From positions 32,001 through 96,000 of the IMG/VR virus record IMGVR_UViG_3300037245_001077: 64,000 nucleotides of DNA; one strand, written 5' to 3'. Of the stretch, positions 37,916-50,500 are shown piece by piece. The position numbers and the translations under genes are program-made. Position 1 is the stretch's first letter; every line of letters starts with the position of its first letter. The notes under the pieces were generated by a model. That model saw only the letters and a list, made by a program, of their open reading frames with translations, searched no databases and had not been told where the DNA came from. Origin of the DNA: a virus.

Positions 37916-40683
37916 GTGTACGACGACAATAGCCGTATGGGGCTACATTTTCACATGTACTTCATTCCGTATATGCCACCTGCCGAGGTGACTAATCTAA
38001 TTATTGAGCAAATGGCTAAGGAGTATCGTAACCTTCAGATAAAGTGCAAAGCTTTTGATGATGCCTTAGCTGATCTGGAAGACCGTTATGCCGAAGAGAT
38101 GTATCCCAATCCAGATTGGGAAGAGAAAGATCTGTCAGAGAGGGACCAGGACTTGGTTTCCCGCATTAAAGGACAGACCGTTAGACTAGCTTGTGAGAAG
38201 CTCCGAAAGACTGCTGAGGAGCTGTGCAAGGCCAACGGGGTTATAAAAAGCTGAAAAACACTTGACTACATCCGCATCTTCATGTACCGTGGTACCTGGA
38301 GATGTGGAGTTGTGCCATGAGTGATTTCAAAGGAACCCTTGTTGTGACTATGCGATTCGACATACCTGTGCGTGCAGGTATGTACCAAACGGTGTTGAAG
38401 GAGAAGGGCGTAGTAACGCCTGACGATATCATTCGCATCGAAGAGCAGAATTACCTGGACAATGCGGACGACTACCTTGAGATCATGGGGGATCATGTGT
38501 CTGAAGTGTCATTTGATTTTCTGCCAGAGTCGAAAGGGGTAAAGCGTGAGTGACGATCTGTTGATTGACGATGATGAGTTGCTACCGGGTGAACTTGCTT
38601 TCACTTCTGCGGATCTCGAACGGCAAATAACAGACTTAACTGCGGTTTTGAAAAGGAAAGACGAGGAAGCCGAGCGTAGCTTGACTCAACTTCAACTCGA
38701 CGCTAACGCTGAGTATAAGCTGATAGTGAAAGAGCGACAGATGATTGAGGAGGAGCTAAATACTCTCAAAACCAACTTTGGGCGGTTAGAGGTAGAGGGC
38801 GAGAATATAAGTCTCGAAGGTAAACAGGTATTTGACCGTCTCGTGGAATTGGATAAAGAACGCATGATTGGGGTTCTGGCTATCCGCTTTCTCGCTCGAC
38901 GGATATCTGATGGTTTGATTTCTGTAGGTGCCTTACCCAATATCGACAAGAATATCTATGTGGCTCTTAGGGCGTGGGCAGAGAAAGCCACACCCCCCTT
39001 CTTTGAGGATGGCTGGCCCGAGGACAAGGCTCTTGGTGAGATACTAATGGAGATGTTTAAGGTTACTGGTACAACAGGTTCATATGCAAACATGTCTGGA
39101 AGGATCCAAGAGCTATTGACAGAGGATGAGAGCGAAGACTTCCAGAAGTACATGGACAAGGTACCGATTATTGACCCTCTTGGTATTACGAGTAAGACGG
39201 CTAGGCTGTACGCGAAGATTTCCCCTGAACTGGCAGGTGTCATACCTAAAGCACAAAGCTGGAAGCCTAGGGGGGCAGATGATATTTGAATGTGCAACTG
39301 ATGGATGTACAACTAAAACAGAGCGTAGAAGCCCTAGGCACAAGTACTGTGATGTATGTGCAACTAAAAGGAAGACCGACTATAATAAGGTTTGGTATGA
39401 AACTATTGGTGCTGAATGGAAGAGGATAAACTACTTAGAGAGCCGAGGGGGTATCCTTGTTACACCTAGAACACCGGAAGCTAAAGAGAAGACTAGACAA
39501 AGAGCTTTGAAAAGACACAGAGAGTACCAACAGCGGCCTGAGGTTAGAGAAAGACGTAAAAAATATGAGCAGCGGGCTAAAGTAGAGGAGCGTAATATTG
39601 GTTTGAGGGCAGAAATTATTGTTCTCCGCAGAGAACGCCGTCTTCAAGAGGAACGTGACGGTGGGAGACGTTTTTTTAGACGAAGAGCTAAAATTAGTGA
39701 GCCATATCTGCCAAAGCACCTTATATGGGGAAAGCCAGAAGAGGATGAAGTATCGTGAGCAAATCACAGGTTAGTAAGGAGCAGGTGGAGCACTTACATA
39801 AGAGTTGGCGCGGTAGGGGTGGGCGCAGTTCTCTGTATAACCTTGCTAAGAGACATGGAATAACCCTCAATGAAGCTTACGTGATTTTGAGTAGTCCCTT
39901 GCACGCTGCCACGAAGAGAGTGGAGATGGGGAAGAAGTTCGTGTCCTACAGGGAGAGATAATGCGAATCAAGGTCAATTGGTTTGTACGCTTCGTGGCTA
40001 AGGTGGCTAGAGTTGATCTTGATAGCTACGCCTGTGAGGACAAGAAGGACAAGAAGAGAGGCAGTGTAGACTTCAGTAAGGTAATGGCACAGCCGTTGCT
40101 ACCTCCCCGGCTTCAGTCAGACCTTAAGAGGATCATAGAGGAACAAGCAGAGCTAGCTGAGAAAATCACGGGGGTTAACCAACCACATACGGGAAGATCA
40201 CTAACGCAGGCTGGACAATGGAATGAAACAACCTTCACGGTTGGTACGGCTGAGGATCCCCAAGAGCTGTTAGAGAACATCTACTGGCCTGTGACTAAGG
40301 GTAATGGCCCTGGTGAGGTTACAGTAGACCCGTTGTCACAGGCGCGTGAGGATGCCCTTGAGGAGATCAATAGGCAGTACGCTATCCCTAAGGAGCTATG
40401 GGATAAGTTCAGGACTGAGGAGCAGATGGGGAAGTACTACCGGGAGCAGTTAGAGGAGTACATCCTTGCTAACGCACAGTCCGATGCCCCTCCACGTACT
40501 ACAGCGAAAGAGTATGCCGAGGTGGTGTATAGAGCCTTACAGAGAATGAGTGGTGTAGAGACTCCTCCCCGGCTTCAGTTCTCCCCCACACAGGACAAGC
40601 TGATAATCAGCCCTCCTCCGCCTGATCTAGAAGATGATTTGGGCGTAGATGGATGCGAGATACCAGAAGAGATGTTTGATTAG
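37916..40683 (+). other. Hypothetical ORFs (37916-38254, 38317-38553, 38546-39289, 39279-39758, 39755-39961, 39961-40683)
   Basis: Coupled + strand ORFs. Confidence 0.65.
38262..38290 (+). promoter_or_regulatory. Sigma70-type promoter
   Basis: TTGACT-N17-TACCGT. Confidence 0.4.
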
Positions 40684-41016
40684 TATTATGTTATGTATAC
40701 ACATGACATAGTTATTAACTATAGAACTTCTTTGTTTTCAGCCACTTACAAAAAGCCATGTCAGTTTTGTATATAAACGTACTTGCAGTATGTCCAATTT
40801 ACCGAGGTTACCCGGCGTTATAAGGGTATTTTATTACATAAAATGCATTTAATGTTATTATGTGTATGAGTTACAATGATTATAATCTGTAAGTTCTTTA
40901 GAATCAAGAGGTTAAAAAGTAATAAATACTACATTTAAGATACATAAGGTTTATAAGCCCGGATAACCTACATAGTTATCGTTCATTAGATGCTTTTAGT
41001 GCGAATCAAAAATGAG
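40684..41016. other. AT-rich non-coding region (candidate origin or recombination site)
   Basis: No ORF, strongly AT-rich, IHF-consensus AATCAAGAGGTTA at 40902-40914. Confidence 0.35.
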
Positions 41017-41017
41017 T

Positions 41018-41091
41018 ACCCCTGTAGCTCAATGGTAGAGCGTGGTCCTTATAAGGCCGTGACCCGAGTTCAACTCTCGGCAGGGGTACCA
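41018..41091 (+). tRNA. tRNA-Ile(UAU)
   Basis: Acceptor ACCCCTG/CAGGGGT, loop CT-TAT-AA, encoded CCA. Confidence 0.85.
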
Positions 41092-41092
41092 C

Positions 41093-41122
41093 TTGACAAC
41101 TTCGATACTTAGGTGGTATCGT
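41093..41122 (+). promoter_or_regulatory. Sigma70-type promoter for tmRNA
   Basis: TTGACA-N18-TATCGT with an extended TG. Confidence 0.55.
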
Positions 41123-41144
41123 GTTCCTAGCTTATACAGCACGA

Positions 41145-41175
41145 GGGAGGAAGGACGCGATGCGACCAACCTCCC
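41145..41175 (+). repeat. Conserved stem-loop motif, copy 1
   Basis: GGGAGG-AAGGACGCGATGCGACCAA-CCTCCC; second copy at 42897-42929. Confidence 0.55.
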
Positions 41176-41195
41176 GCCATGGTCTTTCAAAATAT

Positions 41196-41536
41196 GGGGG
41201 CGCACTGGTTTTGACAGGGATGTTTGACGAGAGGGAGAAGCGTGTCGTGTTTGCTTTCGGCGTTAACGAAGGCTACTCGTTTAGTTGACGAATTTGAACA
41301 ACTACCCTTAGCGGCATAGTTCCGCTAACGTGGTCCTAGAAACTCCACCTATCTGGAGACCACGCTATTAGGTGGGCTGAGGTTTCCGTGCTCCATTTGC
41401 AGAGGAAGGCGTAAAGCTCATGTAGGTTAACTTCCTCATCTTAAAAGTAGGGCTTGCTTGAGCCTATCAAGCTACACACGTAGAAGGCTCTTAGATCCTT
41501 CCTTGGACGTGGGTTCGATTCCCACCGCCTCCACCA
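41196..41536 (+). ncRNA. ssrA: tmRNA, tag peptide (A)DEFEQLPLAA*
   Basis: 5' GGGGGCG..TTTGAC, 3' GGTTCGATTCCCACCGCCTCCACCA, G3-U70 pair, tag ORF 41287-41319. Confidence 0.95.
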
Positions 41537-41554
41537 ATTTTTTAAGGAGACAAG

Positions 41555-41872
41555 ATGAAGTTAATCACACAAATTCCCGAGGTAGGTATCCTTCCGAATG
41601 GTTTGTGGTGGAAGTATGTCCCCGTAAGGGATGATTTTTTTCATTTCGCTATAGGTTTTTGTTGGCGTTGGGGGAAACCCTACTACGATGAGTTTGATAT
41701 GAAGGAGAAGGACTTCTCCAGAGGGTTTCGCACGTCTTTACGATTGGTGAAAAAAGGTAGAGAGTATCGACTTATTCCTGAGCTTTTCTTTTGGGAAGAA
41801 GGCCAACAGTATGGGACGAAGCAGTGGTTTGATCGTAAGCTTTGGAGAACGACCGAAAAAATATCGGATTAG
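41555..41872 (+). CDS. Hypothetical protein
   Basis: AAGGAG SD, 105 aa. Confidence 0.65.
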   Translation: MKLITQIPEVGILPNGLWWKYVPVRDDFFHFAIGFCWRWGKPYYDEFDMKEKDFSRGFRTSLRLVKKGREYRLIPELFFWEEGQQYGTKQWFDRKLWRTTEKISD

Positions 41873-41875
41873 GGG

Positions 41876-41940
41876 TTGACAAATCCTAAAACATATCCGA
41901 TACTAACTACCTTGCATGTAAATGCAACGATCTTTGACAT
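41876..41940 (+). promoter_or_regulatory. Promoter plus boxB/boxA-like antitermination leader
   Basis: TTGACA-N17-GATACT; hairpin TTGCAT-GTAA-ATGCAA; GATCTTTGACAT. Confidence 0.6.
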
Positions 41941-41944
41941 TCAG

Positions 41945-42815
41945 GATATGGCCACATGGGGTCATTAAGGAAACAGGGGAGTAATCCCCTGGAAGGGGTA
42001 ACGAGAGTGTTACGCTCGCCCACCTATCTTCGGGTAGGCCCATCCATGAGAATCGCGGGTAGCCCGAGCCACGGGTGGGTACGTGTGCCCTAACCTGAGG
42101 AGCAAGGTGATTGTACGGTGGTGCTAGATAAGGGACAAACCGGGTCTTCGGGCCACAAGGTAGCTCTTATCGATTCCTAGCAGGGATGCTAGGTAATCAT
42201 CGATCCAATTGTGAATCAGGCCACTCCTAAGCGATAGATACCTTAGTCCGAGGAAATGGCAAACCTAGGGCGGGGTAGCAGTACCATTGAGGTTTGGGCG
42301 GAATTCCCAAAAATCAAGAAGTACGGGTAAAGGGACAGCTAGTCTCGAATGCCAGGGCGCGTGTTGTATTTTGTGGCTCAAAAGGCTACGAAGCGATGGA
42401 CAGGGCACGAACCCAGTGACATTATCACCGTGAAATTCGCCTAATAGCAAGGCGTTTGGCCTTAGGACCAAAAGATGAGGGTGCAATTCCTTCATTTCAC
42501 TTCAAAACGATAAGGAAAGTCCCTGTCGGTCGCTAAGCGAAAGGGGCCTAAGCCTCTCCCCGCAAGGGAAGGGAGGCCACCGAAGCTCCCAAGGCTGAAA
42601 GTGGTCAATGTGGAAATGAAGACCTTGAGACGGCCATCTCAGGACGGACTGGAAACATCGAGTCGCGGAGCGATGACGAAGGAAATGCTACCTTCTTAAA
42701 AAAGCGGTCCTGGTCGAATACTGGAGAGATCCGGTGGATAAGTTGTTAACTGAAGGATGGAACCTTAGGGTACGGCAACAAAAGGTTGACCACAATAATG
42801 GGTAGTCTCACCATT
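41945..42815 (+). ncRNA. Large structured ncRNA, GOLLD-like (boundaries approximate)
   Basis: ~870 nt with no credible ORF, many tetraloop hairpins (UUCG, GCAA, GUAA), own promoter, next to tRNAs, internal tRNA-like domain; family assigned from recalled sequence features. Confidence 0.7.
42430..42504 (+). pseudogene. Degenerate tRNA-like element inside the large ncRNA
   Basis: GTGAAAT/ATTTCAC acceptor, D and T arms, 8-nt loop CCTTAGGA, ends TCA rather than CCA. Confidence 0.65.
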
Positions 42816-42896
42816 TTCTTTTATTCTCTACCAGTGGTAGGGAATCTTCAAAGGCTCGGTGGTGCCCGCCTGGACGAAACCACCCTATTTTGTCCC

Positions 42897-42929
42897 TAGC
42901 GGGAAGAACGCGATGCGCCTAACCCGCTA
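42897..42929 (+). repeat. Conserved stem-loop motif, copy 2
   Basis: TAGCGGG-AAGAACGCGATGCGCCTAA-CCCGCTA. Confidence 0.55.
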
Positions 42930-42946
42930 AATTTTGGTTGTAGTGT

Positions 42947-43021
42947 CGCGGAGTGTAGCAGCGGTAGCTAAGCTGGCTCATAACCAGATGGTCGGGGGTT
43001 CGAATCCCCCCTCCGCAACCA
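42947..43021 (+). tRNA. tRNA-Met(CAU), initiator-like
   Basis: C1:A72 mismatch, loop CT-CAT-AA, CCA. Confidence 0.85.
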
Positions 43022-43070
43022 AGTTTAGGGGGTGTTCTTTCACCCCTTTTCTTTATTGTCTGGAGAGAGT

Positions 43071-43223
43071 ATGACCCGCAACGCTTTGATCCAGGCTATT
43101 ATCGAGATGGTTACATCTTCTTTACCCAAGAAGATAACGTTGACCAAGAAGATTGGCAAGGATTTGTGGGTAACGGATACGAAGAGAATGCTCGCCCTTA
43201 TGAAGAAGAAGAGGAAGAAGTAA
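43071..43223 (+). CDS. Basic protein, MTREELIE family
   Basis: MTRNALIQAIIE N-terminus, Lys/Arg-rich. Confidence 0.65.
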   Translation: MTRNALIQAIIEMVTSSLPKKITLTKKIGKDLWVTDTKRMLALMKKKRKK

Positions 43224-43224
43224 C

Positions 43225-43590
43225 ATGACCCGCGAAGAGCTTACCGAAGCCATTGTTGAAGCAGTTATCGGTTCGCACGAGGCGGGTGTAGCTATCAATA
43301 CCATGTACAACCAGCATCCAAAGCTCTTTAAGAAAATAAACAAGTGGGAATCAGGGAAACGACGGCGTTTGCAGGTTATGAGAAAATTACGGTTGTCTAA
43401 GGATGACGATTTTGATATTAATGATAAGGCGGTAAGCCACTCTACACGCAAAGCGCATAAGTGGTTGTCTAAACGAAAGAATCCGTTAAATCGGACGTTT
43501 CAGGATCGGGTAAAGGCCGTAACTCGTAAGCCTTCAAAGCAAGTAGCGAAGGACGCGCATTACAATATGCGTTCTAGAATGACTTATTAG
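43225..43590 (+). CDS. Basic protein, MTREELIE family
   Basis: MTREELTEAIVE N-terminus. Confidence 0.8.
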   Translation: MTREELTEAIVEAVIGSHEAGVAINTMYNQHPKLFKKINKWESGKRRRLQVMRKLRLSKDDDFDINDKAVSHSTRKAHKWLSKRKNPLNRTFQDRVKAVTRKPSKQVAKDAHYNMRSRMTY

Positions 43591-43600
43591 AGGAAATAAC

Positions 43601-43642
43601 ATGTTCGTGACAACGATTAAAACCGAGGAGGAAAAGATCTAG
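43601..43642 (+). CDS. Leader peptide 1 (MFVTTIKTEEEKI) of tRNA operon 1
   Basis: GAGGA SD; the last 10 codons are Thr/Ile/Lys/Glu, matching the downstream tRNAs. Confidence 0.85.
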   Translation: MFVTTIKTEEEKI

Positions 43643-43647
43643 GATAG

Positions 43648-43698
43648 CCCTGGACATACCTTCGGTGTATCTCCAGGGACCGTAAGGTCTCTTTTTTT
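43648..43698 (+). terminator. Attenuator 1
   Basis: Antiterminator CCCTGGA/TCCAGGG overlaps terminator AGGGACC-GTAA-GGTCTCT-T6. Confidence 0.85.
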
Positions 43699-43708
43699 GT
43701 GTCTATGA

Positions 43709-43782
43709 GCCGGTGTAGCATAATGGCAATGCGCGTCTCTTGTAAAGACGGAGATCCAGTTCAACTCTGGCATCCGGCTCCA
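43709..43782 (+). tRNA. tRNA-Thr(UGU)
   Basis: CGTCT-CTTGTAA-AGACG; slightly irregular acceptor/T junction. Confidence 0.8.
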
Positions 43783-43787
43783 ATATT

Positions 43788-43862
43788 CACCCTGTAGAAC
43801 AATGGTCAGTTTACCGGGCTTTCAACCCGATGATCGGGGTTCAACTCCCCGCAGGGTGACCA
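43788..43862 (+). tRNA. tRNA-Glu(UUC)
   Basis: Loop CT-TTC-AA, CCA. Confidence 0.85.
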
Positions 43863-43866
43863 ACTT

Positions 43867-43942
43867 GGCGGTGTCTGCTAACGGTTAGGCAACATGGTTC
43901 TCACCCATGAAATGGCGGGTTCGATTCCCCCCACCGTCACCA
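43867..43942 (+). tRNA. tRNA-Glu(CUC)
   Basis: CATGG-TTCTCAC-CCATG, CCA. Confidence 0.85.
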
Positions 43943-43954
43943 TAGGAGATCAAC

Positions 43955-44107
43955 ATGAACGGCGACCGAAACGACAAGATGTCCGAACTCATGCGAGCAA
44001 TTCGCTGGGGGTGGGACTGTATGTACCCTGTCCGTATCAAGGGTAGTGAGAAACGTCGTTTGCGTCGAAAATACCGTCACGATGCTAAACGTGAGATAGC
44101 CCTGTAG
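43955..44107 (+). CDS. Small basic protein (50 aa) ending inside tRNA-Ile
   Basis: AGGAG SD, MNGDRNDK...REIAL*. Confidence 0.55.
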   Translation: MNGDRNDKMSELMRAIRWGWDCMYPVRIKGSEKRRLRRKYRHDAKREIAL

Positions 44108-44172
44108 CTCAGTGGTAGAGCAGAGGGTCGATAACCCTCGTGTCCGTGGTTCGAATCCACGTGGGGCTACCA
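44098..44172 (+). tRNA. tRNA-Ile(GAU)
   Basis: GAGGG-TCGATAA-CCCTC (C33), CCA. Confidence 0.85.
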
Positions 44173-44179
44173 TTTACAC

Positions 44180-44255
44180 ACCCCCATGACGCAACTGGCA
44201 GCGTAGCTGGCTCTTAACCAGTATGTTGAAGGTTCGACTCCTTCTGGGGGTACCA
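44180..44255 (+). tRNA. tRNA-Lys(CUU)
   Basis: Loop CT-CTT-AA, CCA. Confidence 0.9.
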
Positions 44256-44258
44256 TGT

Positions 44259-44333
44259 GGGATCGTGGCGCAATGGAAGCGCAACAGGCTTTTAACCTGA
44301 ATGTTGAGAGTTCGAGTCTCTCCGGTCCCACCA
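44259..44333 (+). tRNA. tRNA-Lys(UUU)
   Basis: Loop CT-TTT-AA, CCA. Confidence 0.9.
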
Positions 44334-44365
44334 CCTTCTTCCTTCTTTATTTCTTGGGAGATGCT

Positions 44366-44599
44366 ATGACCCGAGAAGAACTTATTGAAGCCATTGTTGA
44401 AGTGATGCAGCGAAGTAAACATCCTCTAACGGGTGGTCATTTCAGTTTTCCTCCTCCTATGAAAACAAGAGCAGGGCAGTGGACAAGACGGAAGCGTTTG
44501 AGGGTTGTTTCTGGTGCTATGACAGGTAAAGACCCTAGCATAACGAAATCTATGGCTTTTGCTTCTGAAATAGCTCGAAGAAAACGAGCAAACAAATAG
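44366..44599 (+). CDS. Basic protein, MTREELIE family
   Basis: MTREELIEAIVE N-terminus. Confidence 0.8.
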   Translation: MTREELIEAIVEVMQRSKHPLTGGHFSFPPPMKTRAGQWTRRKRLRVVSGAMTGKDPSITKSMAFASEIARRKRANK

Positions 44600-44610
44600 A
44601 GGATTAAAAT

Positions 44611-44844
44611 ATGACCCGTGAAGAGATTATTGAAGCCATTATCCTTACTGAGTTCGAGCCTTTGACTATGATTGCTGCTGGTGCGGCTACTGGTTACGCG
44701 GCTAGAAAGTTGAGAAACCGTTATAGCGTTAAAGGAGCCACAGGTGCGGCTAAGAGAAGTTCGGCTATCTCGAAGGCATATGCGAAGAAGGCTGAGCGGC
44801 ATACCGCAAGGGCAAAGTTCCTTACTGCTAGAAAGAACGCATAA
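44611..44844 (+). CDS. Basic protein, MTREELIE family
   Basis: MTREEIIEAIILTE N-terminus. Confidence 0.8.
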   Translation: MTREEIIEAIILTEFEPLTMIAAGAATGYAARKLRNRYSVKGATGAAKRSSAISKAYAKKAERHTARAKFLTARKNA

Positions 44845-45944
44845 TGACCCGAGATAAGATTATTGAAGATATTGTTGAAGGCTACGTCAAAGATGTGCTC
44901 ACTTACGATTTGAGTAAGCATCATCCTAGACCCCATGAGCGCTTCCGCTTCAACAACGCAGCCCGTAAAGCCAAAGAGAAGGCACGGGAAGTGTTTAGGA
45001 ACAAAGCCAAGAGCGCACATGATACTCAACCTATTGACGTTTCCAAGTTTGTATCCAAATCTACAGCTCGTAGGGCACCGGGGATCAAAGTCCCCAAAAG
45101 CTATCGCCCTAAACTTAAGATGAGTTCAGCTAGGCGAAAGGGTCCAACCGTTCGCCAACAGCAGGGCAGAAAAGCAGTGTTGGGTGCAGCGGCAGCTATT
45201 GGTGCGGGTATGGTGGCTCATAAGGCGTACAAGTACCATAAGGCCAAAAAGAAAAGAGAGATGCGTGAAGGCTTGATTGAGGCCCTTTCTACTCATAAGG
45301 TCTACAAGGCTAGGATGTTTTCAAAGAAGCCACAATCTTATGCTAAAACAATGACTTATTGGCAAACTCCAGAACAGAAGAGTTTAAAAGCTGTTAAGAA
45401 AAAGATTCCCGTGGTTTCTTTAGAGTTAAGGAGTAAAAAGGATAAGTCTACCCATCAGGTGTCGCTTGCTCCAGATCCTCGTAAGAGGCTTTGGGGGAAA
45501 TTGGCAAAGATGCAGGGGTTTGACCCTAAATCAAAGAAAGCAACGCTTAAACGACGGGCGTTTTATCGTTTGCGTAAGAACAAGTACAAGGTTGTTGAGG
45601 GTGACCTAGGGGACTTCGCTGTAGCCCCAACCGCAGCCGTAGACGCTTCCCCGATCCATAAAGAGCAGAGGGATCGGTATTGGATGATCAAGAACCGTAA
45701 GAAGATCAAGAACATGATAGTGAAAGAGGTTTTTGACGACACCTATGGTTCGAGCGTGCTTGACCGAGCAGCACGGGTGGAAAAATCTACAAACTTTATT
45801 GCTAAGGCGAAAAAGCTTAAAAGCCTTGTTGGTAAGGCGAGAAAGCTTACTAAGGATTATGAGCTTGGTATGTACCACGGTGCGGGCAAAATGTCTAAGA
45901 TGAATATCTCTTTGGGTAACAAAAAATTTGGGAAGATAGGGTAG
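44844..45944 (+). CDS. Large basic protein, MTREELIE family, with internal copies of the motif
   Basis: MTRDKIIEDIVE; internal MREGLIEAL and RKKIKNMIVKE. Confidence 0.85.
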   Translation: MTRDKIIEDIVEGYVKDVLTYDLSKHHPRPHERFRFNNAARKAKEKAREVFRNKAKSAHDTQPIDVSKFVSKSTARRAPGIKVPKSYRPKLKMSSARRKGPTVRQQQGRKAVLGAAAAIGAGMVAHKAYKYHKAKKKREMREGLIEALSTHKVYKARMFSKKPQSYAKTMTYWQTPEQKSLKAVKKKIPVVSLELRSKKDKSTHQVSLAPDPRKRLWGKLAKMQGFDPKSKKATLKRRAFYRLRKNKYKVVEGDLGDFAVAPTAAVDASPIHKEQRDRYWMIKNRKKIKNMIVKEVFDDTYGSSVLDRAARVEKSTNFIAKAKKLKSLVGKARKLTKDYELGMYHGAGKMSKMNISLGNKKFGKIG

Positions 45945-45952
45945 GGGTTAAC

Positions 45953-46225
45953 ATGACACGCGAAGAAGTGATTGAAGCCATTGTATACGAGATGACGCAA
46001 GAGAAAAAAGATAAGTGGAAGTCTCGTGCCAAGAAAACTGCAATCGGGGCTGGTATAATTGGAGTAGGTGTTCTTGCTACGAAAGCTCCTAAAGCTAAGC
46101 GTTATCATGCTTTAGGTAAAAAGGTGTCTTCTACGGTGGATAGTAGCGCTTACAGACAAGCTTTGGTTTCTAAGAACAAATATGGATTGCATGTTGACAA
46201 ATACTATGGTTCTTCTTCTTTTTAA
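45953..46225 (+). CDS. Basic protein, MTREELIE family
   Basis: MTREEVIEAIVYE N-terminus. Confidence 0.8.
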   Translation: MTREEVIEAIVYEMTQEKKDKWKSRAKKTAIGAGIIGVGVLATKAPKAKRYHALGKKVSSTVDSSAYRQALVSKNKYGLHVDKYYGSSSF

Positions 46226-46228
46226 GGC

Positions 46229-46257
46229 TTGACAACGGTAACAAAAGATGCCATACT
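46229..46257 (+). promoter_or_regulatory. Sigma70-type promoter of tRNA operon 2
   Basis: TTGACA-N17-CATACT with an extended TG. Confidence 0.7.
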
Positions 46258-46266
46258 AAATCAGTA

Positions 46267-46326
46267 ATGAAGAATTTTCTATATACCCTCGTTGATTGTG
46301 TAGCCCACTTTGATAGTTGGCTTTAG
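46267..46326 (+). CDS. Leader peptide 2 (MKNFLYTLVDCVAHFDSWL) of tRNA operon 2
   Basis: 13 of 18 codons are F/L(CUN)/Y/V/D/C/A/H, the downstream tRNA set. Confidence 0.85.
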   Translation: MKNFLYTLVDCVAHFDSWL

Positions 46327-46377
46327 GGGGGTTTTTGTCTTTTCGTCTTTGACACCCCCTGCACAAGGGGGTTTTTT
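46325..46377 (+). terminator. Attenuator 2
   Basis: G-run at the stop codon can pair with ACCCCCT; terminator ACCCCCT-GCACA-AGGGGGT-T5. Confidence 0.85.
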
Positions 46378-46384
46378 AGTATTC

Positions 46385-46461
46385 GGGGGTGTAGTCTAGT
46401 AGAGTAAGGCCCTGGATTGTCAGTCCAGTGATCGCCGGTTCGAGTCCGGTCACTCCCGCCA
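46385..46461 (+). tRNA. tRNA-Asp(GUC)
   Basis: CTGGA-TTGTCAG-TCCAG, G73, CCA. Confidence 0.9.
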
Positions 46462-46462
46462 A

Positions 46463-46474
46463 GTTCTTTGAAAA
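46463..46474 (+). promoter_or_regulatory. boxA antitermination site
   Basis: GTTCTTTGAAAA. Confidence 0.65.
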
Positions 46475-46481
46475 TTAGTGT

Positions 46482-46566
46482 GCTGAGGTGGCGAAGTTGG
46501 TAGACGCGCTGGTCTTAGGAACCAGTGTCTTCGGGCGTGTGGGTTCGAATCCCTCCCTCAGCACCA
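46482..46566 (+). tRNA. tRNA-Leu(UAG)
   Basis: CTGGT-CTTAGGA-ACCAG, long variable arm. Confidence 0.92.
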
Positions 46567-46577
46567 AAATATCGTGT

Positions 46578-46653
46578 GGGCTGTCATGTTCCAAGGGGGC
46601 GAGGAGCACTTGCAATGCACCTGTGGAGGGTTCGATTCCCTTGCGGTCCACCA
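46578..46653 (+). tRNA. tRNA-Ala(UGC)
   Basis: G3-U70, loop CT-TGC-AA; atypical D arm. Confidence 0.78.
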
Positions 46654-46657
46654 AGTT

Positions 46658-46731
46658 GTGAGGGTAGTGTAATGGCAGCACGAGAGTTTGTGGCACTCTC
46701 AGAGCGGATTCAAATTCCGTCCCTCACCCCA
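46658..46731 (+). tRNA. tRNA-His(GUG)
   Basis: AGAGT-TTGTGGC-ACTCT, C73; position -1 is T, not G. Confidence 0.85.
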
Positions 46732-46811
46732 GTTTCGGTTTTGGGGGTCCGACACAGTGTTACAAGCTACCTCAGAGGTAGTTCAAGGGCACTCTACAAA
46801 ATCCCCATTTG

Positions 46812-46885
46812 AGGGTGGTGGCCGAGAGGCTAGGCAGGGGACTGCAAATCCTTTTACGCGGGTTCAAATCCCGCCCACCTTTCCA
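46812..46885 (+). tRNA. tRNA-Cys(GCA)
   Basis: Loop CT-GCA-AA, U73. Confidence 0.9.
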
Positions 46886-46886
46886 T

Positions 46887-46972
46887 GCCAGTATAGACCT
46901 CTATGGAGGGGGGACGGGTTGTAGCCCCGTTGTTGCAAGGCCCGCAAGGTTCGATTCCTTGTACTGGCACCA
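46887..46972 (+). tRNA. tRNA-Tyr(GUA)
   Basis: ACGGG-TTGTAGC-CCCGT, long variable arm. Confidence 0.85.
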
Positions 46973-46975
46973 TTT

Positions 46976-47051
46976 GCCTCTGTAGCTCAGGTAGTAGAGC
47001 GCGAGACTGAAGATCTCGGCGTCGGGGGTGCAAGTCCTCCTGGGGGCACCA
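46976..47051 (+). tRNA. tRNA-Phe(GAA)
   Basis: CGAGA-CTGAAGA-TCTCG. Confidence 0.9.
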
Positions 47052-47054
47052 TTT

Positions 47055-47130
47055 AGGCAGGTAGCTCAGTTGGTAGAGTTGCTGGTTTACACCCAGTCTG
47101 TCATCGGTTCGAATCCGGTCCTGCCTACCA
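47055..47130 (+). tRNA. tRNA-Val(UAC)
   Basis: Loop TT-TAC-AC, CCA. Confidence 0.9.
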
Positions 47131-47192
47131 TTCACTTTATTGTTTGGGGTATGTATGTTTCGTGAAGATTATTTTATAAAACGGGATAAAAT

Positions 47193-48068
47193 ATGACGGA
47201 TAGAAATTTAGATTATGACTATGCTGCAAAGCAACGAGATATTACTCGTGAGCAGTATGCTAAAGGAACATATATTTATGCTGGTTATAGTCCTGCAACA
47301 CCTTTAGTGTGGAATGTTGAGGATCAGCCGATTGGCTCAGGTGCTCCGGCAAACGTGTTTGACGCCTGGGGCGAGGACTTGGAGGTCCGGGCGATCCCTG
47401 TGGATGGGAAAGAGCCGCTGACGCCGTTCACCAAGGAGCTTCATGCAAAAACAGGGAACCCTGGATATCTCTATGGGCTGTACTTCACATTATTGCTCGA
47501 TGGTTTTGATATTGATTTGAATAATGGTAAATTCCGGGTTGAAATTGTGGCTCGGCATGTTGTCCCAGATCCAGAATTTCAGCCCGGTCAATACTTACAG
47601 CTTGGTGAGGACGACTATTACCCAGAATGGGATACGTGGCGCATGTTCAAAGCCGGGTTTCTTTCTGAAGAGTCCGGCGAAAGTGATGTTCAATCTTGGC
47701 ATTGGGAGTTTGGTGGTGAACTATATAATTCGTTCTATGACTACAAGGTAAACTGGGAGTTCGGAACACCAATTGTCGGATACACTATCCACCAGATCGA
47801 GGTGGATTTCCAAGCTGGCGTGTTCGAGCAACGCATCGTTGGTCATTGGGCAGGAGATCAAGGAGAGCAATCATCTTGGTGGGTTAAGGCTCCTCGCGCC
47901 GCTGAATTTCCGGCTGGAGAACAGTCAGCACAGACGCTCATATTATGGCTTCAAGATAAAAACAGCGGAGAGGCGATGGTTACTCAGCTTTGGCTTGGCC
48001 CAATTACTGACCCATTCCCAAATGGCGCGGTTTTGACATCGAATATCGGGTTTGGAAATAGTTCTTGA
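47193..48068 (+). CDS. Aromatic beta-rich protein, paralog of 52656 and 53515
   Basis: Shared C-terminal W-x-G-x3-D-x-F/W-P motif. Confidence 0.7.
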   Translation: MTDRNLDYDYAAKQRDITREQYAKGTYIYAGYSPATPLVWNVEDQPIGSGAPANVFDAWGEDLEVRAIPVDGKEPLTPFTKELHAKTGNPGYLYGLYFTLLLDGFDIDLNNGKFRVEIVARHVVPDPEFQPGQYLQLGEDDYYPEWDTWRMFKAGFLSEESGESDVQSWHWEFGGELYNSFYDYKVNWEFGTPIVGYTIHQIEVDFQAGVFEQRIVGHWAGDQGEQSSWWVKAPRAAEFPAGEQSAQTLILWLQDKNSGEAMVTQLWLGPITDPFPNGAVLTSNIGFGNSS

Positions 48069-48093
48069 CAAGCCCTTTATTGGGTGTTAGAGT
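48065..48093 (+). promoter_or_regulatory. Sigma70-type promoter of tRNA operon 3
   Basis: TTGACA-N17-TAGAGT with an extended TG. Confidence 0.7.
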
Positions 48094-48102
48094 GATTAAG
48101 TT

Positions 48103-48171
48103 ATGAAGAGATTATCCTCAAGGTTGTGGCAACAGAGCGGCTCGAATCCGAGTCGCCCAGGAGAGCTGTAA
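48103..48171 (+). CDS. Leader peptide 3 (MKRLSSRLWQQSGSNPSRPGEL) of tRNA operon 3
   Basis: 18 consecutive codons for R/L(UUR)/S/W/Q/G/N/P, the downstream tRNA set. Confidence 0.88.
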   Translation: MKRLSSRLWQQSGSNPSRPGEL

Positions 48172-48172
48172 C

Positions 48173-48236
48173 TAAGGGGTAAAGATGCCAATTCGCCCGT
48201 TCCGTTCTTACCCCCTAGTACAGTAGGGGGTTTTTT
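48173..48236 (+). terminator. Attenuator 3
   Basis: Antiterminator GGGGTAA/TTACCCC overlaps terminator ACCCCCTA-GTACAG-TAGGGGGT-T5. Confidence 0.85.
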
Positions 48237-48246
48237 ATTGATCTAA

Positions 48247-48258
48247 GTTCTTTGAAAA
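48247..48258 (+). promoter_or_regulatory. boxA antitermination site
   Basis: GTTCTTTGAAAA, identical to 46463. Confidence 0.65.
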
Positions 48259-48271
48259 CAAAAAGTTATGT

Positions 48272-48348
48272 CCGAGAATGGCGCAGTTTGGCAGCGCACT
48301 TGGTTTGGGACCAAGGTGTCGAAGGTTCAAATCCTTCTTCTCGGACCA
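48272..48348 (+). tRNA. tRNA-Pro(UGG)
   Basis: CTTGG-TTTGGGA-CCAAG. Confidence 0.92.
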
Positions 48349-48349
48349 T

Positions 48350-48434
48350 GGAAGGTACCGTCTATGGAGACAAGCGGTTTTGAACACCGTAGGCACGTGT
48401 AAGCGCGGGGGTTCGATTCCTCTACCTTCCTCCA
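48350..48434 (+). tRNA. tRNA-Ser(UGA)
   Basis: Loop TT-TGA-AC, long variable arm. Confidence 0.85.
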
Positions 48435-48444
48435 AGTTGTGTGT

Positions 48445-48519
48445 TCGGGCATGGTGTTAGTGGTAGCATACGAGGTTTCCACCCTCTGGGGCCGGGTTCG
48501 AGTCCTGGTGCCCGAACCA
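48445..48519 (+). tRNA. tRNA-Gly(UCC)
   Basis: Loop TT-TCC-AC, CCA. Confidence 0.85.
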
Positions 48520-48529
48520 AAATTTATGT

Positions 48530-48603
48530 AGGGGTATAGTGAAATGGTATCACGGCAGATTCCAGACCTGCTTTTCCGGGTTCAAATCCTGGTACCTCTG
48601 CCA
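48530..48603 (+). tRNA. tRNA-Trp(CCA)
   Basis: Loop TT-CCA-GA, G73. Confidence 0.88.
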
Positions 48604-48609
48604 AAGATT

Positions 48610-48698
48610 GGAAGGGTGGCTGAGTGGTAACAGCGCCGGGTTGCTAACCCGAGGCCGCGCTTCGGCGTGCGAGGGTTCGATCCCCTCTCCTTCCTCCA
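48610..48698 (+). tRNA. tRNA-Ser(GCU)
   Basis: Loop TT-GCT-AA, long variable arm. Confidence 0.9.
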
Positions 48699-48703
48699 AG
48701 TGT

Positions 48704-48816
48704 TGAACGGTGTGGCGTGGCAGCGTCAGGTTTTCCGTTAAGGAGATCATCCCTCCACTGCCTAATCGGAGAATGATGGGAGCTGGGTGGGGAATCCAGC
48801 CACCGTTCACTTTTTT
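48704..48816 (+). ncRNA. Unidentified structured RNA inside tRNA operon 3
   Basis: Closing stem TGAACGGTG/CACCGTTCA, internal hairpins, T6 tail; not a cloverleaf. Confidence 0.5.
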
Positions 48817-48818
48817 GA

Positions 48819-48895
48819 GGCCCTGTAGCTCAGCGAACAGAGCATATGGCTACGAACCATAGTTGTCGGGGGTTTGAATCCCTCCAGGGCTTCCA
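48819..48895 (+). tRNA. tRNA-Arg(ACG)
   Basis: TATGG-CTACGAA-CCATA. Confidence 0.88.
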
Positions 48896-48898
48896 TTT

Positions 48899-48974
48899 GC
48901 ACCCGTGGTCTAATGGCAAAGGCACTGCGTTTCTACCGCAGCAGATGTGGGTTCGACTCCTACCGGGTGTTCCA
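48899..48974 (+). tRNA. tRNA-Arg(UCU)
   Basis: CTGCG-TTTCTAC-CGCAG. Confidence 0.88.
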
Positions 48975-48984
48975 AAACTTATTC

Positions 48985-49063
48985 GGCACGGTAGCTTAGC
49001 ATGGCCTAAAGCAGTAGTTTGTTAAACTAATGATCGTAGGTTCAAATCCTACCTGTGCCGCCA
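48985..49063 (+). tRNA. tRNA-Asn(GUU)
   Basis: Loop TT-GTT-AA, G73. Confidence 0.88.
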
Positions 49064-49069
49064 AATTTT

Positions 49070-49156
49070 GCTGGAGTGGCTGGAATTGGTATACGCAGGG
49101 GACTTAAAATCCCTGGCCGAAAGGTCGTGTGGGTTCGACTCCCACCTCCAGCACCA
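49070..49156 (+). tRNA. tRNA-Leu(UAA)
   Basis: Loop CT-TAA-AA, long variable arm. Confidence 0.92.
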
Positions 49157-49161
49157 GCTAT

Positions 49162-49238
49162 GCCGCTCTGGGCCAATTGGTAGAGTCGGGGGTCTCAAAA
49201 GCCCTTTGTTCCGAGTTCGAATCTCGGGGGCGGCACCA
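49162..49238 (+). tRNA. tRNA-Leu(CAA), short variable loop
   Basis: Loop CT-CAA-AA, A73, 5-nt variable loop. Confidence 0.82.
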
Positions 49239-49241
49239 TTT

Positions 49242-49317
49242 AGCGGAGTAGCTCAATTGGTAGAGCACTGGACTCTGAATTCAGTTGTTGTAGGTTCAAA
49301 CCCTACCTCCGCTGCCA
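49242..49317 (+). tRNA. tRNA-Gln(CUG)
   Basis: Loop CT-CTG-AA. Confidence 0.88.
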
Positions 49318-49392
49318 TTTTGATTGCAGAAACTGACACTTTTTGGTAGGTTACGCGAATGAAAAGCACTGTTTGTGGTCATAATGACTACT

Positions 49393-49468
49393 AGGGGAGT
49401 AGCTCAATTGGTGGAGCAACAGGCTTTGAACCTGTTGGATGTGAGTTCGAACCTCACCTCCCCTTCCA
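49393..49468 (+). tRNA. tRNA-Gln(UUG)
   Basis: ACAGG-CTTTGAA-CCTGT. Confidence 0.88.
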
Positions 49469-49497
49469 TGTATACTTTATTGAAGGCCATGTGTGCT

Positions 49498-49677
49498 ATG
49501 GACACTTTTATCGTTTTGCTAATTGGGGTTGTCGCTTTGATAGCGATTGCTATGGGGTTGAGTGACCGATACTCTCCTCCTTGTCCGAAATGTGGAAAGG
49601 GTCTTAAGATTCTAGGAGCAGACTATCTATGTATCTCGTGTGACAGGGTTTACTCAGAGGATGAAATTCCAACTTAG
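49498..49677 (+). CDS. Small TM plus zinc-ribbon protein
   Basis: TM helix then CPKC...CISC; start codon uncertain. Confidence 0.5.
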   Translation: MDTFIVLLIGVVALIAIAMGLSDRYSPPCPKCGKGLKILGADYLCISCDRVYSEDEIPT

Positions 49678-49693
49678 TTGTGGCTGCAAAGGC

Positions 49694-49722
49694 TTGACAA
49701 ACAACCCTACACCATCTATGAT
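49694..49722 (+). promoter_or_regulatory. Sigma70-type promoter
   Basis: TTGACA-N17-TATGAT. Confidence 0.7.
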
Positions 49723-49810
49723 TCTAGTGCTATGACAACTGGAATTCTTCACCAATCTATTCATTTGCCCGCCTCTTTAGGTGGGCCTTGCTGTTTAAGG
49801 AGGAAAAACA

Positions 49811-50194
49811 ATGAAGTTGTATGTTTTGTTTGAGCAACCGGATGAAACGTATCCGGGGCAGTATGCGCCGTTAGCCGTTACGGTACTCGATGAGTACACT
49901 GTGGATAATTCCGGAAGATCGCTTCACGAGGCTCAGGAGGCAGAACTTGCTCGTCTTTCTATGAAGGAAGGGTTTGATCCTACAGATGCTAAGTGGGCCT
50001 GGGTTGAGGTGGATCTTGGTGTGACTGAACAGTTGATCCGAGATGCTATTCTTCAGCCTGCCCTCGCTGTCCAAGGTGTAGTAGCAGTTCCGGCTGCTCC
50101 TCAAGGGCAGAAACACCCTTCTTATCAGGCCATTACCGTGACTAGAGGAAGGCCAGGAGCAGGAAGAATTGTTGACGATGAAATTGTGGAGTAA
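49811..50194 (+). CDS. Hypothetical protein
   Basis: AAGGAGG SD. Confidence 0.75.
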   Translation: MKLYVLFEQPDETYPGQYAPLAVTVLDEYTVDNSGRSLHEAQEAELARLSMKEGFDPTDAKWAWVEVDLGVTEQLIRDAILQPALAVQGVVAVPAAPQGQKHPSYQAITVTRGRPGAGRIVDDEIVE

Positions 50195-50197
50195 CCC

Positions 50198-50500
50198 ATG
50201 CCCAAGTATAAACGTTATGGGTATGTGGTGGTGGAAAGGTTCTCAAAGCCTTTCGGATTAGTGGCATGTACAAATGTTGGCTTTCACCTTAATCCCCAAA
50301 AAGCGCAGGAACAGGTTGATGCTATAATCGAGTCCGCTGGAGAGGGTAAAGTCGTTGCAGATGAAACAGTTACAGGCAAAGACGATTTTGTCCCCTCTAT
50401 CCGTCGTCATGTCTTAATTGAATACCCTGGTCACGAGACTCTCCAGGTTCTCATCCAGCGATGGTATGTGGAGGTTGGGAGAGATCGCCATGGGGGATAG
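50198..50500 (+). CDS. Hypothetical protein
   Basis: GGAG SD. Confidence 0.65.
   Translation: MPKYKRYGYVVVERFSKPFGLVACTNVGFHLNPQKAQEQVDAIIESAGEGKVVADETVTGKDDFVPSIRRHVLIEYPGHETLQVLIQRWYVEVGRDRHGG

Follow-up and report, generated by a model that had tools for sequence, protein, structure and literature searches.

How phages time and dose the expression of their own tRNA genes is an open question, and these genes are usually treated as constitutive cargo. The question arises for virus record IMGVR_UViG_3300037245_001077, whose tRNA genes all fall inside the window analysed here, a stretch of 64,000 nucleotides (nt) comprising bases 32001-96000 of the 176,533-base-pair (bp) record (G+C content, 47.8%). 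The genes are split into three blocks of 6, 8, and 12, and each block is preceded by a short open reading frame (ORF) with an initiation signal on its 5' side and an intrinsic terminator on its 3' side. These elements are most probably ribosome-mediated (leader-peptide) transcription attenuators that couple each tRNA operon to the speed at which its own codons are decoded. Sequence analysis shows the codon-biased ORFs together with promoters, terminators, and the alternative pairings, as well as the conservation or re-creation of these features in relatives. This would make the regulatory logic legible from the DNA block by block: expression would be tied to the decoding of the phage's own codons.

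The leaders, their switches, and the three tRNA operons all lie on the plus strand. ARAGORN at its default settings, with concordant results from Rfam, places 25 tRNA genes within 43709-49468; a 26th gene, a non-canonical tRNA-Ala(TGC) with a G3:U70 pair recognized by eye (46578-46653), is called only at a relaxed ARAGORN threshold. The count of 26 clustered genes in three operons made in the initial annotation of this locus rests on the latter. Operon 1 (43709-44333) comprises Thr-TGT, Glu-TTC, Glu-CTC, Ile-GAT, Lys-CTT, and Lys-TTT; operon 2 (46385-47130) comprises Asp-GTC, Leu-TAG, Ala-TGC, His-GTG, Cys-GCA, Tyr-GTA, Phe-GAA, and Val-TAC; and operon 3 (48272-49468) comprises Pro-TGG, Ser-TGA, Gly-TCC, Trp-CCA, Ser-GCT, Arg-ACG, Arg-TCT, Asn-GTT, Leu-TAA, Leu-CAA, Gln-CTG, and Gln-TTG. 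The cluster of 25 genes is preceded by Ile-TAT, a transfer-messenger RNA (tmRNA), a GOLLD RNA, and Met-CAT (ARAGORN, Rfam). Rfam matched no T-box at E <= 1 in the region 40000-50500, nor any other known cis-regulator at the locus.

The evidence that the short ORFs belong to the operons that follow them lies in their codons. Leader ORF 1 (43601-43642) has 13 codons and a stop, with 12 sense codons after Met, and its codons 4-13 all specify Thr, Ile, Lys, or Glu (10/10). Leader ORF 2 (46267-46326; 19 codons and a stop, 18 sense codons after Met) encodes Phe, Leu(CTN), Tyr, Val, Asp, Cys, Ala, or His at codons 4-16, with a single exception (Thr at position 7). The 21 sense codons that follow Met in leader ORF 3 (48103-48171; 22 codons and a stop) are all different from each other, and codons 3-20 are without exception cognate to the 12 tRNAs downstream (18/18). 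All three ORFs had been proposed in the initial annotation, which placed the starts of leaders 2 and 3 one base off.

Under decoding rules by which U34 reads the whole family box, G34 reads C and U, A34 reads U, C, and A, and C34 reads G, the numbers of sense codons matching the leader's own operon (10/12, 13/18, and 18/21) were reproduced exactly, although that of leader 2 depends on the tRNA-Ala gene and drops to 12/18 without it. Under strict wobble, the matches are 9, 9, and 16, and even then none of the 26 tRNAs is left without a codon in its own leader, as had been claimed. Matches to the other two operons amount to only 0-3 codons, which gives the matrix of leaders and operons a diagonal form. 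The partition extends to the level of individual codons, because the operon with Leu-TAG has CTA, CTC, and CTT in its leader and the operon with Leu-TAA and Leu-CAA has TTA and TTG; the only departure from the split asserted in the initial annotation is CTG, the final codon of leader 3. ATA is absent from leader 1, and the gene for Ile-TAT sits elsewhere. Non-cognate codons are found at positions 2-3 or among the last one to three codons (Ser and Trp at positions 17-18 of leader 2; Glu and Leu-CTG at positions 21-22 of leader 3), again much as had been noted, with the Thr of leader 2 as an addition. Inside the sensing windows, the match is 10/10, 12/13, and 18/18.

Short ORFs are abundant in this genome, with about 7,000 of 8-35 codons, and leader 2 taken alone is only moderately enriched (P about 1e-3), which would be in line with chance frames located beside ordinary terminators that insulate the tRNA blocks from upstream transcription. 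Such an origin is nonetheless extremely improbable, because the binomial probabilities relative to the codon usage of the phage (2e-5, 1e-3, and 2.5e-6 for leaders 1, 2, and 3) yield a combined value of about 1e-12 to 1e-13, and relatives have conserved the pattern. The probability that a random leader covers its whole operon is 0.02, 0.002, and 5e-5, respectively. When the tRNAs were randomly partitioned into groups of 6, 7, and 12, with the Ala gene left out, none of 100,000 partitions attained the observed total of matches, so that the proposed permutation of leader codons against anticodon sets came out in favour of the association. The first two ranks in 20,982 tests of short ORFs against operons across the 176.5-kb genome are taken by leaders 1 and 3, both of which lie exactly upstream of their own operons. 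A blind scanner, which received only the positions of the tRNAs, scored precisely the three leader ORFs highest among those upstream of the respective arrays, each followed by a terminator, and found nothing before the solitary tRNAs of this genome.

The leaders differ in their initiation signals. Leader 1 has a Shine-Dalgarno motif (GAGG, 43590-43593, read from the sequence) that overlaps the stop of the upstream ORF 43225-43590; the consensus scan that found promoters for leaders 2 and 3 found none for leader 1. Promoter P2 (46229-46257) consists of TTGACA, a 17-bp spacer, and CATACT with an upstream TG; promoter P3 (48065-48093) has the same structure with TAGAGT as its -10 element. In both cases the start codon follows after 9 nt, resulting in a common geometry of TTGACA, 17 bp, TG-extended -10, 9 nt, and ATG AAG. 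Transcripts from P2 and P3 would begin two or three bases upstream of the ATG and would be nearly leaderless. An ATG at such a short distance is present at only 5 of the 36 TTGACA-type promoter matches on both strands of the whole genome. The phage seems to use leaderless initiation, since two of these five promoter-ATG pairs precede full-length genes. The geometry recurs in relatives, at P2 of the metagenome contig L017 (17 bp, 9 nt) and at P3 of L023. A third promoter in the window (49694-49833) shares the arrangement of TTGACA, 17 bp, -10 element, 9 nt, and ATG. The 33-codon ORF behind it, which starts at 49732 and harbours a hairpin (49767-49786), runs across the start of the next gene (49812); this arrangement could represent leader-type control of a protein gene.

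Downstream of each leader ORF, an independent consensus scan located an intrinsic terminator. Terminator 1 (43675-43699; scan hit, 43675-43692) has a 7-bp stem, a GTAA loop, and a T-run; terminator 2 (46354-46378; scan hit, 46354-46372) has a 7-bp stem and a T-run; and terminator 3 (48210-48237; scan hit, 48210-48231) has an 8-bp stem and a T-run. Folding predicts that each competes with an antiterminator. Antiterminator 1 (43648-43678) pairs CCCTGGA (43648-43654) with TCCAGGG (43672-43678), encloses an inner hairpin, and has AGGG in common with terminator 1. The G-run 46326-46332 of antiterminator 2 (46326-46359) pairs with GACACCCCC (46351-46359), the 5' arm of terminator 2. The 5' strand of antiterminator 3 (48165-48223), which spans the last two codons, the stop, and GGGGTAAAG (48165-48184), pairs with the 5' arm and loop of terminator 3 (48207-48223). 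Antiterminator and terminator are mutually exclusive in all three leaders: a strand located at the stop codon or close to it can pair with the 5' arm of the terminator. In leader 1 this strand begins 5 nt past the stop (43648), in leader 2 it begins with the final base of the stop (46326), and in leader 3 (from 48165) it covers the final two codons plus the stop, consistent with the distance of about 6 nt or less given in the initial annotation, whose order of tiny ORF, overlapping hairpins, and tRNAs is likewise borne out by the consensus scan and folding.

One further structure resembling a terminator lies inside operon 3, where an insert of 120 nt between Ser-GCT and Arg-ACG (48699-48818; -45 kcal/mol) has a long-range closing stem and a T-run. 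The insert is absent at the same place in L017, and it could split operon 3 or represent a mobile or processing element.

These elements suggest the following mechanism. The host RNA polymerase would initiate at P2 or P3, and operon 1 would be transcribed by read-in from upstream; a ribosome would then translate the short leader. If all codons are decoded fast, the ribosome would reach the stop and cover the antiterminator strand, so that the terminator forms and the tRNAs are not transcribed. If any of the cognate aminoacyl-tRNAs is scarce, the ribosome would stall in the middle of the leader, the antiterminator would form first, and the tRNA block would be transcribed. The tRNA products would in turn relieve the stall, which amounts to negative feedback. 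The architecture would thus imply an OR-type sensor with product feedback, provided that the leaders are translated and that stalling affects read-through, as we infer.

The geometry of such a switch was examined by modelling the ribosome as an unpaired mask of 28 nt centred on the A-site codon. At full-transcript equilibrium, leader 1 shows a classical pattern: the probability of the terminator, P(terminator), is 0.97 for the ribosome-free RNA, falls to 0.02-0.11 when the ribosome sits at codons 6-8, and is back at 0.96 for a ribosome on the stop. Leader 3 is partly classical; its value without a ribosome is 0.61, and that of leader 2 is 0.29. Because attenuation is decided during transcription, the transcript was also folded as it would be before the synthesis of the terminator's 3' arm. 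In this nascent-transcript model, the 5' arm of the terminator is sequestered with a ribosome at codons 2-12, 2-16, and 2-19 of leaders 1, 2, and 3, respectively; it becomes available only once the ribosome has reached one of the final one to three codons or the stop. This zone is exactly where leaders 2 and 3 carry their 3'-terminal non-cognate codons, and a ribosome stalled at these positions would mask the antiterminator in the same way as a terminating one. Hairpins in the coding parts of leader 2 (46303-46321) and leader 3 (48138-48155) could be pause sites.

Useful relatives of the locus came from metagenomes. Homologues of the ORF of 366 amino acids (aa) between operons 1 and 2 led to four contigs, and L017, L018, L038, and L039 are among the relatives compared. 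Three further contigs with leader 3 were found with a degenerate pattern of its core; a fourth match to the pattern (L020) lacks tRNAs and was dismissed as a chance match. The 291-aa ORF that separates operons 2 and 3 yielded no more than an unrelated context (L009) and a contig that differs by one single-nucleotide polymorphism and, being nearly identical, is uninformative (L010). DNA and protein searches of the GenBank phage collection recovered no relative of the region, and the DNA polymerase had only matches of <33% identity. The relatives in IMG/VR identified via the recombinase (58% identity) lack leaders and contain either no tRNAs or four scattered ones; the leader-core patterns had no match in IMG/VR, and the GOLLD and tmRNA region as a query matched tRNA-Met only.

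Leader 1 is strongly conserved in L018, which has retained the Shine-Dalgarno motif, the leader, and the switch, with the sequence upstream of the Shine-Dalgarno motif being unalignable. All ten cognate codons are identical, and the only two changes in the ORF are synonymous and affect the two non-cognate codons; the stem of terminator 1 is retained by a CU-to-UC change in its 3' arm. L017 carries operons 2 and 3, the latter with the same order of tRNAs as in the window. In the three pairwise comparisons of leaders between the window and L018 or L017, 33 of the 41 cognate codons and none of the 10 non-cognate codons are identical (Fisher P = 3.4e-6). All of the seven changes at cognate positions in the sensing windows (Phe to Val, two of Val to Ala, Ser to Asn, a synonymous change of His, and an exchange of AGA and AGG) stay within the codon set of the operon. 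An in-frame start of the leader is kept in the relatives, albeit of varying type, and the geometry obtained with the ribosome mask holds in the relatives too.

Leader 2 is known from four lineages, and the G-run at or beside the stop is present also in L017, L038, and L039. In L038, where the neighbouring protein is only 31% identical, the order of residues is entirely different, but the leader draws on the same set, namely Leu(CTN), Cys, Phe, Ala, Tyr, Asp, and His (13/18), and is accompanied by a promoter, a Shine-Dalgarno motif, a G-run 4 nt past the stop, and a terminator. The number of Val codons in leader 2 follows the position of the tRNA-Val gene: there are two in the window, where the gene is adjacent, one in L017, where it lies behind two ORFs, and none in L038, where it is located about 700 nt away behind an ORF. 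This trend, which is the only testable change in operon content, suggests a response of the leader in the predicted direction.

Leader 3 is represented in four lineages by a 51-nt core that is 92-100% identical. By comparison, the tRNA-Pro, tRNA-Ser, and tRNA-Gly genes are 64-88% identical and the flanks 55-80%. The start is a leaderless ATG, a Shine-Dalgarno motif with ATG, or a Shine-Dalgarno motif with GTG, and the lineages also differ in one to three N-terminal codons, in two to eleven C-terminal codons, in the position of the stop before or after the G-run, and in loops that cannot be aligned. The frame is nevertheless open in all four, and the G-run at or beside the stop is complementary to the C-arm of the terminator. 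The antiterminator complementarity amounts to -15 to -25 kcal/mol despite the unalignable loops; duplexes formed across lineages are not clearly worse than those within a lineage, so that there is no clean signal of covariation, because the common G-run and C-run pair in any combination. In one relative, an ORF with Cys pairs, an HNH-like motif, and a promoter-like site of its own lies between attenuator 3 and tRNA-Pro (L023:820-1222, in leader orientation); it looks like a homing endonuclease that landed within a regulated unit.

The strong conservation of the leader-3 core, which exceeds that of the tRNAs at the nucleotide level, together with its stable hairpin (48138-48155) and the lack of a Shine-Dalgarno motif in leaders 2 and 3, would be compatible with structured RNAs, such as a processing signal or a binding site for a protein or tRNA, that control termination without translation and contain reading frames only incidentally. 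This alternative is unlikely, as it predicts neither the match at codon level to the leader's own operon only, nor the conservation of the frame across lineages with different starts and stops, nor the confinement of variability to non-cognate codons. It also predicts neither the reshuffled leader of L038 with its same set of amino acids nor a non-homologous leader of the same logic in another phage (see below), and Rfam recognizes no T-box or other known cis-regulator at this locus. A derivation of the leader-3 hairpin from the T-arm of a tRNA was considered and dropped, because the pairs could not be fitted.

The other phage was encountered when the same blind scanner was applied to unrelated phage genomes. 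In the cultured Caulobacter phage CcrColossus, an 11-tRNA array is preceded by an ORF (L030:349-444) with 13 consecutive cognate codons; these encode Arg, Asn, Val, Gln, Ile, and Phe, which are exactly the six amino acids of the array downstream. The runner-up among about 74,000 codon positions is a run of 7. Leader and terminator (L030:349-502, corresponding to 68148-68301 of NC_019406.1) lie before the Phe/Val/Ile/Gln/Asn/Arg array, and folding yields a four-segment, trp-like attenuator whose segment 2 is nearly a copy of the 3' arm of the terminator. A ribosome at codons 4-13 lowers P(terminator) to 0.3-0.7 from the 1.0 predicted for the ribosome-free RNA, and the value returns to 1.0 at later positions. 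The scanner found no leader at the remaining four of the five arrays of CcrColossus. The genome paper of this phage family mentions neither attenuation nor leaders (PMC3556154). Two weak cases were found among about 17 arrays of a 735-kb uncultured phage (LR756501): an ORF rich in Glu, Met, and Gln with a strong terminator before a Glu/Met/Gln/Gln block (L011:17270-17329 of LR756501.1; adjusted P, 0.03) and a Leu-rich ORF before five tRNA-Leu genes (L013:3090-3158; adjusted P, 0.012); the scanner detected nothing at the remaining arrays. The genetic code of this phage may differ, because it carries two tRNAs with a CTA anticodon. Erwinia phage Kaldavass, KVP40, T5, Bxz1, and Atu_ph07 yielded no significant leader with the same scanner.

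Several observations weigh against the interpretation of the three elements as attenuators or narrow its scope. Most arrays in the other phages scanned lack such a leader, and the design is therefore not universal. Leaders 2 and 3 depend on leaderless initiation for want of a Shine-Dalgarno motif. The switch of leader 2 is not reproduced by equilibrium folding of its full transcript, which was not counted as support: the antiterminator is predicted without a ribosome, P(terminator) is 0.7-0.97 with a ribosome at codons 7-19 and 0.3-0.5 at codons 4-6, and a clear anti-antiterminator is wanting. Because equilibrium folding favours the terminator at most ribosome positions, leader 2 fits only if the decision is kinetic. 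A constraint on RNA structure, as opposed to codon identity, could account for part of the very high nucleotide identity in the core of leader 3. The trend in Val codons, which agrees with the expectation that leader codons change with operon content, comprises three lineages only, and neither a terminator nor a promoter was noticed in the spacer between Phe and Val of L038. Counter-examples exist as well: leader 2 of L039 has no Asp codon, although tRNA-Asp heads the block, and 8 of its 20 codons are non-cognate; in L021 and L022, Ser-CGA takes the place of the Ser-TGA of the window, yet TCC and TCA are retained in the leader. Leader 3 of the L021/L022 lineage is devoid of the TTG codon. On balance, the statistics, the folding, and the relatives still support the core of the initial annotation, that these are leader-peptide attenuators built from the codons of their own tRNAs.

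Several conditions could make the cognate aminoacyl-tRNAs scarce in nature, namely a host tRNA pool unfit for the codons of the phage, a late loss of host tRNA synthesis, amino-acid starvation, or tRNA cleavage. The circuit would operate equally well if the codon usage of the phage and the tRNA pool of the host were mismatched, or if host tRNAs decayed once the host is shut off. tRNAs encoded by phages are able to stand in for host tRNAs that have been cleaved, and the architecture would report the loss of any of 6-12 tRNA species, as caused by anticodon nucleases. It is conceivable, if rather doubtful, that the attenuators are specifically counter-defence sensors that fire when PrrC, RloC, VapC-like toxins, PARIS, or retron effectors cut host tRNAs, which would refine the attenuator mechanism rather than exclude it. 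No feature of the window links the leaders to defence, and the codons sampled span nearly all amino acids instead of the known targets of such nucleases (Lys and a few others); ordinary control by supply and demand accounts for the same features. Equally tentative is the generalization that large phages have repeatedly evolved leaders that read up to a dozen tRNA species as an alarm during infection, by which the loss of any one of these tRNAs through host immunity, such as anticodon nucleases, or through shut-off would cause the matching replacement block to be transcribed until decoding recovers. If the attenuators operate as proposed, they would constitute a natural sensor of tRNA supply that is usable as a reporter, and would allow a direct test of whether phage tRNAs serve as a response to the depletion or cleavage of tRNAs. 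CcrColossus, a cultured phage of the model host Caulobacter crescentus, is suited to such tests.

The tRNA operons are embedded in a region with additional features. Six paralogous ORFs of 50-366 aa (43071-46225), which start with Met-Thr-Arg and an acidic/hydrophobic motif and continue with a Lys/Arg-rich part, occur only here, interleaved with the tRNA operons; another member lies between tRNA-Phe and tRNA-Val in L038. They have no match in Pfam, the MTREE paralogue alignment found nothing in IMG/VR, and a role with RNA or ribosomes is a guess. The gap of 155 nt between Glu-CTC and Ile-GAT in operon 1 contains a 48-codon ORF rich in Arg and Lys (43956-44102), which runs into the tRNA-Ile gene. 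The phage tmRNA (41196-41536; tag peptide DEFEQLPLAA) is preceded by a promoter-like site (41093-41122) directly after tRNA-Ile-TAT. The GOLLD RNA between tmRNA and tRNA-Met (42354-42814) scores 161.5 bits with Rfam, above the gathering score, and includes a tRNA-like element (42430-42501), with a tRNA-like call at the corresponding place in L018 (L018:5520).

Leader-peptide attenuators that sense a single amino acid (trpL, hisL, pheL, and leuL) or several of them (Thr and Ile in the case of thrL; Ile, Leu, and Val in the case of ilvL of ilvGMEDA) control amino-acid operons of enterobacteria. The phage elements resemble them in the short leader rich in regulatory codons, in the alternative hairpins between which the position of the ribosome decides, and in the placement of the stop, at which the ribosome would cover the antiterminator strand. 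An anti-antiterminator pairing is likewise predicted for leader 1 and for the leader of CcrColossus. Unlike the genes controlled by enterobacterial attenuators, the regulated genes are tRNAs and not biosynthetic enzymes, and the sensed molecule is therefore the direct product. Whereas enterobacterial leaders contain runs of one to three amino acids, those of the phage cover 4, 8, and 8 amino acids, corresponding to 6, 8, and 12 tRNA species, and in most cases include each of them only once or twice. Further differences are the discrimination at codon level (Leu CTN versus TTR), the phage origin, and the nearly leaderless nature of two of the three.

Leader-peptide attenuation of a component of the translation machinery is exemplified by pheM, the leader of the aminoacyl-tRNA synthetase operon pheST of Escherichia coli. 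This leader differs from those of the phage in that a single amino acid is sensed and a protein gene controlled, without a checklist of many codons and without tRNA genes downstream. T-box riboswitches likewise report the state of a specific tRNA by transcription antitermination, but they bind uncharged tRNA directly via a specifier codon and the T-box sequence and do not involve translation, whereas the phage elements hold translatable ORFs. The ilvB leader peptide of Corynebacterium diphtheriae is leaderless, its transcription starting at the start codon of the leader (PMC5784534). The same is suggested for leaders 2 and 3 by the spacing of promoter, 9 nt, and ATG, with the difference that ilvB controls a branched-chain amino-acid operon of a bacterium.

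Full-text searches of the literature retrieved leader peptides of amino-acid operons only and no description of such control for tRNA genes, in agreement with the claim of novelty for phage tRNA arrays in the initial annotation. The attenuators described to date act on genes for biosynthesis, transport, and aminoacyl-tRNA synthetases, a scope that does not include blocks of 6, 8, and 12 tRNA genes, and we know of no earlier case of leader-peptide attenuation that controls tRNA genes. The mechanism itself is known; what sets these elements apart from the described ones is the tRNA gene as a target, the degree of multiplexing, the partition among operons at codon level, and the phage setting. 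If the leaders act as proposed, they would raise the number of amino acids sensed by a multivalent attenuator from two or three to eight, and the number of tRNA species to 12.

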